The notes beneath the pieces are model-generated. The model worked only from the letters and a program-made list of their open reading frames with translations, did no database searches and had not been told where the DNA came from. DNA of 64,000 nucleotides from an uncultured Oscillospiraceae bacterium. GTDB lineage: Bacteria > Bacillota > Clostridia > Oscillospirales > Oscillospiraceae. Below are positions 28,901 through 29,989 of this stretch, one piece after another (positions within the stretch are counted from its first letter, which is position 1; each line of letters starts with the position of its first letter). Location of the stretch: assembly GCA_947588955.1 (NCBI GenBank), contig CANPYX010000004.1:6421-70420 (forward strand), given 5' to 3'. Position numbers and translations under genes: made by a program.

Positions 28901-29989
28901 ATGGCCACTATGACAGCGGCTCAGGTCAAGGACCTGAAGACGAAAATCAAGGCGCTGATGACGCAGCGCAACGGGTACGGGTCACTTTCCACTGACACCG
29001 GGTACAATTACGCCGTGAAGGACTCGGCGGTGAATTACGCCGGCTCCGCTTACGACTTTTCCACGTCTCCCACATCGGGCGGAACGGTCCTCGCGGAGCA
29101 CGGGCAGAAGACCGTGAATCTGCTGCTCAGAATAGCCGAGCACGGGAACCTCAAGAAGGTGGCAAAGGGCGAACCCATCCCCTCAAGCTTCGACTCCTCC
29201 CTCATAACCTATGTTAACACCCTGGCGGGAGAGAGCATGACGGGGACGACCACCAGCTGCCACGGGGCGTGTACGGGGCTGTGCGCGAAGACGTGTTCCT
29301 CTCAGTGCTCCGGGTGTCAGGGCGGCACGTCGGGGGCATACCGCGGCAGCAATTGCGGCGGGTGTTCCGGCACCTGCGGGACGGGGTGCAAGAGCGGATG
29401 CGGAGGGTGCAGCACAAGTTGCACCGGATGTACAGGCTGCAGTAATATGTGCTCCTCCGGATGTTCCAGCTGCTCCAGCGGGTGTTCTGGCGGTTGCGTG
29501 GGCTGTACAGGGTGCAGGTCTTGTGACGGCCAGTGTTCTGATGCCTGTTCCGGTTGTTCCGCCTCCTGCGGGAGGAAGGTGTCCAGCGGGTGCAGCGGAT
29601 CTTCATGTGGAGGCACTTGTAGCACAGGCTGTACGGGGTGCTGGGGGCACTGCGTTACAAGCTGCTTGGGTTGTAGAGGGGACTGCGGCGGCAGTTGTTC
29701 CAGTGGGTGCGAAAGTAGCTGCAGCGGATGCTCTTATGCCTGCGGCGGCAGTTGCGCGGTCCAATGTTCGGGGTGTAAGGGCTGTACCGGCTGTGATTCC
29801 TGCGGCGGGTGCTCCGGGTGCTCCGGCTGTGGCGGGACGAGCTGTTCGGGCTACTGCTACGGCAGCTGCTCCTCCTGTTCGGGGTGCTCCGGCTCGTGCC
29901 AGAAAAACTGCTCCTCCGCCTGCTATACCACCTGCTCCGCCACCTGCTGGGGCAACTGCAAGGGCACGGCGGACAGTTTGAATTCTTAG
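28901..29989 (+). CDS. CXXX-repeat hyper-cysteine protein 1 (putative radical SAM target)
   Basis: ~125-aa N-domain, then ~235 aa with 61 Cys (my count) spaced CxxxC/CxxC. ATG 5 nt after the fibre stop. Confidence 0.8.
   Translation: MATMTAAQVKDLKTKIKALMTQRNGYGSLSTDTGYNYAVKDSAVNYAGSAYDFSTSPTSGGTVLAEHGQKTVNLLLRIAEHGNLKKVAKGEPIPSSFDSSLITYVNTLAGESMTGTTTSCHGACTGLCAKTCSSQCSGCQGGTSGAYRGSNCGGCSGTCGTGCKSGCGGCSTSCTGCTGCSNMCSSGCSSCSSGCSGGCVGCTGCRSCDGQCSDACSGCSASCGRKVSSGCSGSSCGGTCSTGCTGCWGHCVTSCLGCRGDCGGSCSSGCESSCSGCSYACGGSCAVQCSGCKGCTGCDSCGGCSGCSGCGGTSCSGYCYGSCSSCSGCSGSCQKNCSSACYTTCSATCWGNCKGTADSLNS

Follow-up and report, generated by a model that had tools for sequence, protein, structure and literature searches.

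To our knowledge, radical S-adenosylmethionine (SAM) enzymes of the SPASM type cross-link small peptides that are secreted and, in one known case, an enzyme subunit, but no such cross-linking is known from virus particles. Here we describe P1, a prophage gene in a 64,000-nucleotide stretch of DNA (the window; positions 6,421 to 70,420 of contig CANPYX010000004.1, assembly GCA_947588955.1) of an uncultured Oscillospiraceae bacterium. The P1 protein consists of a folded N-terminal domain (the N-domain) followed by a long array of closely spaced cysteines, and its gene stands between the gene of a collagen-like tail fibre and those of a small helper protein and a radical SAM enzyme. The arrangement suggests that P1 may be a component of the fibre tip that is cross-linked by an enzyme encoded by the phage itself.

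Described systems and how the P1 locus compares

Part of this system has been defined computationally before. NCBIfam holds a maturase family, TIGR04115, and a repeat model, TIGR04114, and the P1 locus resembles the pair in three respects: its radical SAM enzyme scores above the TIGR04115 cut-off, the enzyme is flanked by proteins with C-x3-C and C-x2-C repeats and small spacer residues, and TIGR04114 responds weakly, below its cut-off, to P2, a paralogue of P1 in the same window. As both the enzyme family and a 'CXXX-repeat target' are already in NCBIfam, the system is not new as a category. The pair exists as a computational definition only, and the N-domain, the helper, the coupling to the fibre and the different architectures lie outside the Pfam and NCBIfam models. 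A literature search found no publication on the CXXX-repeat radical SAM system or on a link to tail fibres. With the tools used here, no earlier description was found of the N-domain family, the helper, the link to tail fibres or the variety of architectures.

The closest characterised radical SAM/SPASM relatives of the phage enzyme are PapB/PapA (freyrasin), CteB/SCIFF and NxxcB, whose substrates carry repeated cysteine motifs (six C-x3-D motifs in PapA). These substrate peptides comprise about 45 residues with a leader and receive one to six cross-links, whereas P1 has 362 residues, 61 cysteines and a folded domain. PapB shows little dependence on the leader, and both PapB and CteB carry an N-terminal recognition element (RRE) for ribosomally synthesised peptides that are modified after translation (RiPPs) (PMC12715619), whereas the phage enzyme has no RRE and its genes lie in a phage tail module. 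The hallmark of ranthipeptides and sactipeptides is a short leader-plus-core precursor; in contrast, P1 reaches the length just given, and the arrays of its family also occur leaderless, permuted or fused to domains of 200-600 aa. The nearest precedent for the use of such chemistry on a structural protein is QhpD, a SPASM radical SAM enzyme that acts on QhpC, a protein that stays in a larger assembly. QhpD installs several cysteine thioethers within a subunit of that assembly and not in a secreted peptide. QhpC differs from P1 in being a small periplasmic enzyme subunit with three cross-links to Asp/Glu, with neither a repeat array nor a phage context.

On the side of phage structure, Gp38 of T-even-like phages (Straboviridae) offers a functional analogy only. 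Gp38 caps the distal fibre, combines an N-terminal attachment domain with a compact domain of glycine-rich motifs, and alters the host range through modular exchange (PMC12032242). Like P1, which is exchanged together with the fibre tip, it is encoded by a separate gene, and the likeness extends to relatives of P1 that carry polyglycine-type ALK_LTK_GRD domains. The two proteins differ in that they share no similarity of sequence or fold (no Foldseek match in the PDB), Gp38 needs no covalent maturation, and its location in the virion is proven whereas P1 is known from genes. Metallothioneins and keratin-associated ultra-high-sulfur proteins resemble P1 in cysteine density, CxxC-type spacing and the use of small residues, but they show no homology to it (no match in Pfam or NCBIfam), have no dedicated radical SAM enzyme and follow other spacing rules in another context.

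A constrained cysteine array

The earlier note on this DNA had read P1 as a two-part protein, a folded N-terminal domain followed by a C-x2-C/C-x3-C array, and this division is borne out. A predicted fold of about 119 residues without a single cysteine is followed by 234 residues that contain all 61 cysteines of the protein, spaced by two (22 times), three (34 times), four (twice), seven (once) or twelve (once) residues. The bias of the spacers towards Gly, Ser and Thr was also seen correctly (125 of the 173 non-cysteine residues of the tail, 72%), as was the terminal KGTADSLNS. Cysteine makes up 26% of the tail compared with 1.2% of eight other long open reading frames (ORFs) of the same prophage, which excludes chance as its origin. 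Within the repeats, the first position after a cysteine favours Ser or Thr and the second favours Gly (77% of the C-x2-C units). Both ends of the array are conserved: it starts with (S/T)SC(R/H)GACTGLCxxxC, in P1 with TSCHGACTGLCAKTC, and is closed by an aromatic end (...CYTTCSATCWGNC). Beyond it, C-termini related to the tag of P1 are found in P2 (GTADTVQ) and in homologues (G(T/S)AK or GTATxV).

The frame in which the cysteines are read is the coding frame of P1, and the gene is real and constrained. This follows from three observations. First, the N-domain and the tail are contiguous in one frame in more than 100 homologues. Second, metagenome gene callers predict the identical 362-aa gene. 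Third, the cysteines are conserved under a low ratio of non-synonymous to synonymous substitutions (dN/dS) between P2 and its orthologue in L001, a near-identical prophage found in a metagenome-assembled genome of a rabbit-gut Oscillospiraceae. P2 is 45% identical to P1 across the full length (BLASTP, E 3e-71), and all 49 of its cysteines are kept in the L001 orthologue, with dN/dS at 0.07 for the N-domain, 0.14 for the tail and a similar 0.11-0.17 for neighbouring genes. The value for the P2 tail rules out a hypervariable or positively selected array. Two further candidate explanations of the array were rejected. Its repeats have diverged at the DNA level and only short, low-score repeats were detected, which rules out a recent tandem amplification; a coiled-coil reading of the 3/4 spacing fails on the missing alternation of spacings and on the incompatible Gly/Ser composition.

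A dedicated radical SAM enzyme and helper

The radical SAM enzyme matches TIGR04115, the 'radical SAM peptide maturase, CXXX-repeat target family', over model positions 3-359 of 359 with 463.7 bits (cut-off 350; E 5e-139). Of the other NCBIfam models, PapB comes next at 163.5 bits, ahead of the SCIFF maturase (110 bits), CcpM (98 bits) and QhpD (TIGR03906, 94 bits). The CX3CX2C motif is intact (C38-x3-C42-x2-C45) and is followed by SPASM cysteines at positions 284, 302, 352, 355, 361, 364 and 383, all of which, together with those of the motif, are invariant in 11 family members. The closest solved structure is that of CteB (5WGG, E 9e-21), and the absence of an N-terminal RRE is deduced from the alignment, which begins only at CteB residue 92.

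The association of the enzyme with the cysteine protein was examined from both sides. A first set of 38 loci comprised 37 anchored on the N-domain (12 from GTDB and 25 from IMG/VR) and one from a search of the GenBank phage collection, and in 36 of the 38 a radical SAM gene lies 1-3.5 kb from the gene of the cysteine protein. A second set was anchored on the enzyme, a relative of which occurs on at least 279 IMG/VR contigs. In the best 80 loci, which were those examined, a cysteine-repeat ORF is present on the same strand in 76 and the N-domain in 71, and the helper is located directly upstream of the radical SAM gene in 77, as it is in many of the loci anchored on the N-domain. The cysteine-repeat protein, the helper and the radical SAM enzyme form one three-gene cassette with strict co-occurrence. 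The membership of the enzyme in TIGR04115 and the counts of 36/38 and 76/80 loci uphold the earlier assignment of P1 to the nearby radical SAM gene, and P1 is very probably a substrate of this enzyme. As the module is duplicated in the window (P1 and P2), two substrates apparently share a single pair of radical SAM enzyme and helper.

The helper family, typically of about 105-120 aa, is conserved among the loci and has no family match in Pfam (including PqqD) or NCBIfam. In the AlphaFold2 model a beta strand precedes a long helical hairpin, and a W-x-L-D-F motif is carried by the beta hairpin that follows (predicted local distance difference test score, pLDDT, 82). Because this predicted fold differs from that of a canonical PqqD-like RRE and no PqqD match is found, the helper would be a protein of another kind. 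Its identification as TIGR04116 or as an RRE was ruled out on the same grounds, there being no family match and the predicted fold not being a winged helix. Compared with the L001 protein, the helper of the window contains an insertion of about 20 aa in its C-terminal part (30821-30898, PMPVFDGCPCGHTGPVGAPGASGPSDHD), which AlphaFold predicts to be disordered; a derivation of this insertion from the collagen gene was considered, and no relation was found.

In characterised relatives of the radical SAM enzyme, cysteine sulfur is bonded to a carbon of another residue (PMC8326336; PMC12715619). We infer a similar chemistry here because PapB, SCIFF/CteB and QhpD all form cysteine thioethers; by this analogy, the chance that thioethers specifically are the product of the phage enzyme appears about even.

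A different fate of the array has to be weighed at this point. The array might remain largely unmodified and bind Zn, Fe or Fe-S in the manner of metallothioneins or ferredoxins, perhaps stiffening the fibre, with a radical SAM enzyme that installs only a few cross-links or serves another role. Iron ions stiffen the gp37 needle of phage T4. The cysteine content of the array, its CxxC/CxxxC spacing and its small spacers are all compatible with metal binding, and AlphaFold cannot fold the array alone, as would be the case for a cofactor-dependent structure. Even so, metal binding is quite unlikely, given the strict co-occurrence with an enzyme of the peptide-maturase type whose relatives consume cysteine thiols. 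In addition, no metallothionein or ferredoxin family in Pfam or NCBIfam is matched, and the conserved motifs at the start and end of the array suggest a substrate that is processed enzymatically from one to the other.

Linkage to the tail fibre

The clearest single piece of evidence for a link between P1 and the fibre comes from the comparison with L001. The window and L001 are colinear at 96% identity (blastn) up to position 28371 and again from 30018. The segment 28372-30017, which is missing from L001, comprises the distal ~175 residues of the fibre (~378-551) and P1. At this site L001 has a different fibre end followed by two unrelated ORFs, and it retains the helper, the radical SAM enzyme, orf125 (a small fibre-like gene) and P2. 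The distal part of the fibre and P1 have been exchanged together as a cassette.

The two genes are also joined at the level of translation. P1 begins with an ATG at 28901, five bases beyond the TGA of the fibre (28894-28896), as had been pointed out in the earlier note. A 4-nt spacer separates this stop from the ATG, and the ribosome-binding sequence GGGGGTGAGG overlaps the final fibre codons. Because the Shine-Dalgarno sequence of P1 is embedded in the end of the fibre gene, translational coupling of the two is implied; the short spacer, the embedded sequence and the joint exchange together substantiate the proposed coupling of P1 to the collagen-like fibre. Neither P1 nor P2 has its own promoter, and both are coupled to late fibre genes. 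The fibre matches the Pfam Collagen family (E 1e-15) and many PHROG tail-fibre families. Its start is less clear-cut than its end, as the ORF of the 565-aa tail protein upstream (25656-27353) overlaps the fibre ORF by ~110 nt; in L001 the fibre ORF reaches further upstream, beginning from a GTG, and a frameshift junction is possible.

Similar fibre ends precede the cysteine proteins elsewhere. In most loci, the gene of the cysteine protein is directly preceded by that of a tail fibre, whose architecture varies and which frequently has a shared C-terminal module (...LWIDT..GGIxKYYxGxxW....[AS][VT]WG). The first 38 loci contain 1139 ORFs with a length of 80 aa or more. An ending of the form [VTSK]W[GSAQ]x0-3 is present in 33, of which 26 lie directly next to a cysteine protein. 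All 19 locus ORFs with [VT]WG directly before the stop use TGG GGG, followed by TGA in 17 and TAA in two, a count made on a wider list that includes L001 and both genes of the window. The result is a Shine-Dalgarno sequence (GGGGGTGA) located a few bases ahead of the start of the cysteine protein. Loci without the [VT]WG end have an explicit GGAGGTGA in the spacer instead. The WG end is selected as a protein motif too, because the codons for Val and for Ala/Ser vary synonymously and because a lineage ending in AWVPLAATWG, with GGA/GGT TAA codons, has a separate Shine-Dalgarno sequence. A fusion of fibre and P1 by read-through or frameshifting was ruled out, as the offsets between stop and start span all three frames across loci. 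The C-terminal module of orf125 is likewise kept upstream of cysteine proteins at other loci; orf125 itself ends in WSVWGVK, and P2 starts two bases later. In the window, orf125 and P2 represent a second copy of the module, and locus L013 shows the same double arrangement.

A position directly after the fibre gene, translational coupling to it and exchange with the distal part of the fibre are also what would be seen if P1 were a tail-fibre assembly factor, that is, a chaperone of the Tfa/T4 gp38 type that is not part of the finished virion and whose array would be an assembly scaffold or a buffer for redox or metals. Fibre chaperones are classically encoded and behave in this way, as known for the Tfa proteins of lambda and Mu and for gp38 of T4. 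Fibre assembly with the help of chaperones has been described (PMC9608196). For P1 this role is unlikely. A dedicated radical SAM enzyme and helper represent a large investment for a transient role, arrays of up to 145 cysteines look structural, and relatives carry two ALK_LTK_GRD domains, a DUF6273 domain or a module resembling a carbohydrate-binding module (CBM), which would be unexpected in a transient chaperone.

These relatives show how the array is used in other contexts. Several loci encode it in two proteins, A with the N-domain and a core of 11 cysteines and B, a leaderless protein (M-A-S-C...) with 39-53 cysteines, and in other loci the cysteine array comes first and an N-domain-like helix after it. 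Loci L094 (3800-6229) and L108 (2544-4994) encode, beside the helper and the radical SAM enzyme, proteins of 809 and 816 aa in which a leaderless cysteine array of ~220 aa is followed by two glycine-rich ALK_LTK_GRD domains (PF12810; E 7e-99 and 3e-97), a striking combination of two scaffolds built from small residues. Some members consist of the N-domain, the array and a C-terminal domain of 190-315 aa, and a C-terminal DUF6273 (47 bits) occurs as well. The CBM-like module, present as an insertion, matches PHROG families annotated as 'host range and adsorption protein', 'tail protein' and 'PblB-type receptor binding'. As judged from these domain orders, several relatives use the array as a module of adsorption proteins that acts as a stalk or scaffold, and the architectures argue for a structural, receptor-proximal role. 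One family representative, P0045 (334 aa), combines the N-domain, the cysteine array and a helper-like domain in one ORF. This fusion could be real or could result from a missed stop or a frameshift; if real, it physically joins substrate and helper.

The N-domain and its family

AlphaFold2 was applied to the N-domain with the first 45 residues of the tail. With an alignment of 93 sequences, 81 residues of the N-domain were predicted at a pLDDT of at least 90, with helices at residues 6-22, 65-78 and 100-109, and the tail remained below 50. A match of this domain to a well-known enzyme family would have spoken against the reading in the earlier note, and nothing of the kind was found: P1 and P2 had no match in Pfam, NCBIfam or PADLOC, P1 had none in a sequence search of the PDB, and a Foldseek search of the PDB with the N-domain returned none either. 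The sole PHROG match of P1 and P2 is a weak one to family 6085, of unknown function. In BFVD, the only structural neighbours of the N-domain are homologues on uncultured gut siphovirus- and podovirus-like contigs, and the automatic name 'TNFR-Cys' that one of them bears is a composition artefact.

The family is nevertheless large. A profile of the N-domain searched against 1.84 billion representative proteins retrieved 387 clusters with E<=1e-3, of which 190 have E<=1e-10, counted as representatives clustered at 50% identity. Retrieved sequences have a median of 172 aa and 15 cysteines, which makes P1 an expanded member of the family. Arrays of 9 to 145 cysteines per protein are found in genomes and viral contigs, with a middle that varies in length between conserved caps. 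The C-terminal cap is aromatic (...S-T-C-(Y/F)-x-T-C-x-x-Q-C-(F/Y/W)-G-(T/S)-A), and the junction with the N-domain, E-S-M-T-G-x-x-S-S-C-R-G-A-C-T-G-L-C-x-G-x-C, is the best-conserved stretch of the whole protein, with C120, C124, G126 and C128 invariant in the 93 aligned sequences. The homologues in databases are mostly truncated inside the cysteine array, their contigs being 1-3 kb long. A collection of 15 billion proteins contains the neighbouring helper and radical SAM enzyme but neither P1 nor P2 as an exact sequence. The cysteine-array family seems to be under-counted in databases, since the arrays apparently defeat both assembly, which tends to break within them, and gene calling.

Two roles had been proposed for the N-domain in the earlier note, a leader or recognition domain and a fibre-docking domain. 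The first fares poorly, at least as a RiPP leader that acts in cis and is essential: it is unlikely because leaderless M-A-S-C... proteins and relatives with the cysteines first occur. Docking to the fibre is the favoured role, at the level of a proposal, through the gene order, the ...[AS][VT]WG end of the fibre, the joint exchange and the fusions to domains of the receptor-binding type.

The same observations bear on the possibility that P1 is a giant RiPP precursor, in which the N-domain would be a long leader comparable to those of NHLP/Nif11 precursors and the core would be freed at lysis as a bacteriocin, a signal or a peptide against competitors. The enzyme does belong to RiPP maturase families, tools of the antiSMASH type would call the locus a ranthipeptide cluster, and the strongly conserved junction could be a site of recognition or cleavage. 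This is very unlikely all the same. No peptidase or exporter is found in the cassette among P1, a 46-aa ORF, the helper, the radical SAM enzyme, orf101, orf220, orf125 and P2; forms without a leader or with a permuted order exist; cores of 40-530 residues with large globular fusions are unlike any secreted RiPP; and the gene is coupled to fibre genes and does not form an autonomous operon.

Proposed mechanism

In the mechanism proposed here, P1 would be translated in step and stoichiometrically with the fibre through the ribosome-binding site inside the last fibre codons. The N-domain would serve as an adaptor that anchors P1 at the distal end of the fibre, with the ...[AS][VT]WG C-terminus as a candidate docking site. 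The radical SAM enzyme, together with the helper in place of a fused recognition domain, would process the 234-aa array from its (S/T)SC(R/H)GACTGLC start to the aromatic C-terminal cap and install many covalent cross-links, most likely thioethers between the cysteine sulfur and a carbon of a neighbouring small residue. The product would be a rod or knob at the tip of the fibre, compact, resistant to proteases and independent of redox state, and would take part in adsorption. Its cross-links would replace disulfides, which cannot form in the cytoplasm nor survive in the anoxic, reducing gut. We infer that thioethers are formed, how many cross-links there are, that P1 docks to the fibre and that it enters the virion, and consider the picture as a whole, a fibre-tip component cross-linked by a phage radical SAM enzyme, somewhat probable.

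Several observations weigh against this picture. With regard to the chemistry, it is extrapolated from relatives at 25-40% identity, and the P1 array is nearly devoid of Asp and Glu, the acceptors in PapB and QhpD. The TIGR04114 repeat model does not match P1 and scores P2 at 14.5 bits (cut-off 20), the helper fold has no match in the PDB below E 0.45, and AlphaFold assigns no structure to the array, as seen in the low pLDDT of the tail. With regard to the fibre, the invariant GGG and TGA of the WG end are partly due to the embedded ribosome-binding site and not to docking, about two thirds of the loci anchored on the radical SAM enzyme lack the [AS][VT]WG fibre end, and a position after the tail fibre is typical of assembly chaperones and morons as well. 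Finally, no cultured phage was found to carry the family: a tblastn search with the N-domain against 50,697 GenBank phage records gave no match.

Genomic setting of the cassette

The features of the locus are collected in Table 1. The prophage region contains genes for a terminase, a portal, a capsid protein and a Gp15-type chaperone, followed by the tape measure (22965-25259), the 565-aa tail protein, the collagen-like fibre, P1, the helper and the radical SAM enzyme. After the latter come orf101, orf220, orf125, P2, a holin-like ORF and an Amidase_2 endolysin, and the host gene for methionyl-tRNA synthetase at 36982 follows these lysis genes. P1 is the product of a late gene in a prophage of an Oscillospiraceae-like gut anaerobe.

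Table 1. Coordinates (window positions) and properties of P1, its parts and its partner genes
Feature	Position	Strand	Description
Collagen-like tail fibre	27241..28896	+	551 aa, ends ...TAKAVWG; stop TGA 28894-28896
Last fibre codons GTG TGG GGG TGA and spacer GGAT	28885..28900	+	Embedded Shine-Dalgarno-like GGGGGTGA for P1
P1 gene	28901-29989	+	362 aa, ATG to TGA, C-terminus ...CKGTADSLNS
P1 N-domain	28901..29257	+	Residues 1-119; small, helix-rich fold without known match; proposed adaptor/docking domain
P1 cysteine-repeat array	29258..29959	+	Residues 120-353, 234 aa, 61 Cys, consensus C-[ST]-G-(x)-C; region on which the radical SAM enzyme is proposed to act
P1 C-terminal tag KGTADSLNS and stop	29960..29989	+	Sequence feature
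Helper ('companion')	30530..30955	+	141 aa; stop overlaps the start of the radical SAM gene (ATGA)
Radical SAM/SPASM maturase	30952..32274	+	440 aa; start according to gene calls
orf125, small fibre-like protein	33596..33973	+	125 aa, ends ...GLWVDTS..LKYYD..KWTPVWSVWGVK; directly 5' of P2
P2, paralogue of P1	33975..34973	+	332 aa, 49 Cys; same N-domain and junction motif

Two stretches near the cassette are of a different nature. L001, though colinear elsewhere, does not have the interval 32275-32761 with orf101 (32461-32766; 101 aa, without a known family). The interval 30029-30489, between P1 and the helper, is 87% identical in L001 and contains two facing, perfect consensus sigma-70 promoters (TTGACA-17-TATAAT, 12/12), one on the plus strand at 30029-30057 and the other on the minus strand at 30456-30428. 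They flank a 46-aa ORF (30181-30321) that encodes a hydrophobic helix and a basic tail (...SLALYLRDRKRK), and a strong bidirectional terminator with a 13-bp hairpin is located between them at 30317-30349. The interval looks like a moron of the type I toxin-antitoxin kind inserted in the cassette. An Rfam scan of 27000-36500 gave one spurious miRNA match only.

The presence of this small-ORF module, bounded by promoters and a terminator, and a location between the tail and lysis genes, a common site for morons, raise the question of whether P1 itself could be a moron for lysogenic conversion or defence that helps the host, for instance through superinfection exclusion or protection from stress, and has nothing to do with the virion. 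Such a function is highly improbable: P1 and P2 lack promoters and are coupled to the late fibre genes as described above, PADLOC reports nothing beyond a weak generic viperin-core match for the radical SAM enzyme, and the cassette is kept across very different phages, always beside fibre genes.

One short member of the family stands apart. In locus L009 (9095-9535), a protein of 146 aa with nine cysteines has no radical SAM gene within 2.3 kb. Its gene is located 3' of genes for proteins with 28-residue repeats (…SIYAKPEFSWEQM…) and precedes two ORFs that were read by eye as a nucleotidyltransferase/HEPN-like pair. The protein may represent a remnant, or a case of use independent of a radical SAM enzyme.

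Implications

The family is abundant in gut viromes, as indicated by the radical SAM contigs in IMG/VR and the N-domain clusters counted above, yet it is invisible to Pfam and NCBIfam. At present, genome mining includes such loci among the 'ranthipeptide biosynthetic gene clusters' of Clostridia; if they are parts of phage tails, these counts are inflated. From a practical point of view, the radical SAM enzyme could serve for dense peptide stapling, and the short members of the family, of ~150 aa with 9-12 cysteines, are testable in Escherichia coli. If the proposed picture is true, these enzymes would have a new class of substrate, folded proteins with up to ~145 sites that are modified with a helper other than an RRE and with apparent independence of a leader, and the product would possibly be the most densely cross-linked natural protein known. 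It is tentatively suggested, as a generalisation that may well not hold, that many phages of strictly anaerobic gut Clostridia build a part of the fibre tip as a ladder of dozens of thioethers or other cysteine-derived cross-links (9 to ~145) made by a radical SAM enzyme. In that case, RiPP-type maturation would act on a structural protein of the virion and provide a disulfide-free, redox-proof scaffold for host recognition, and radical SAM chemistry would have a new role in the receptor-binding hardware of phages that live where, under anoxic and reducing conditions, disulfides are useless.

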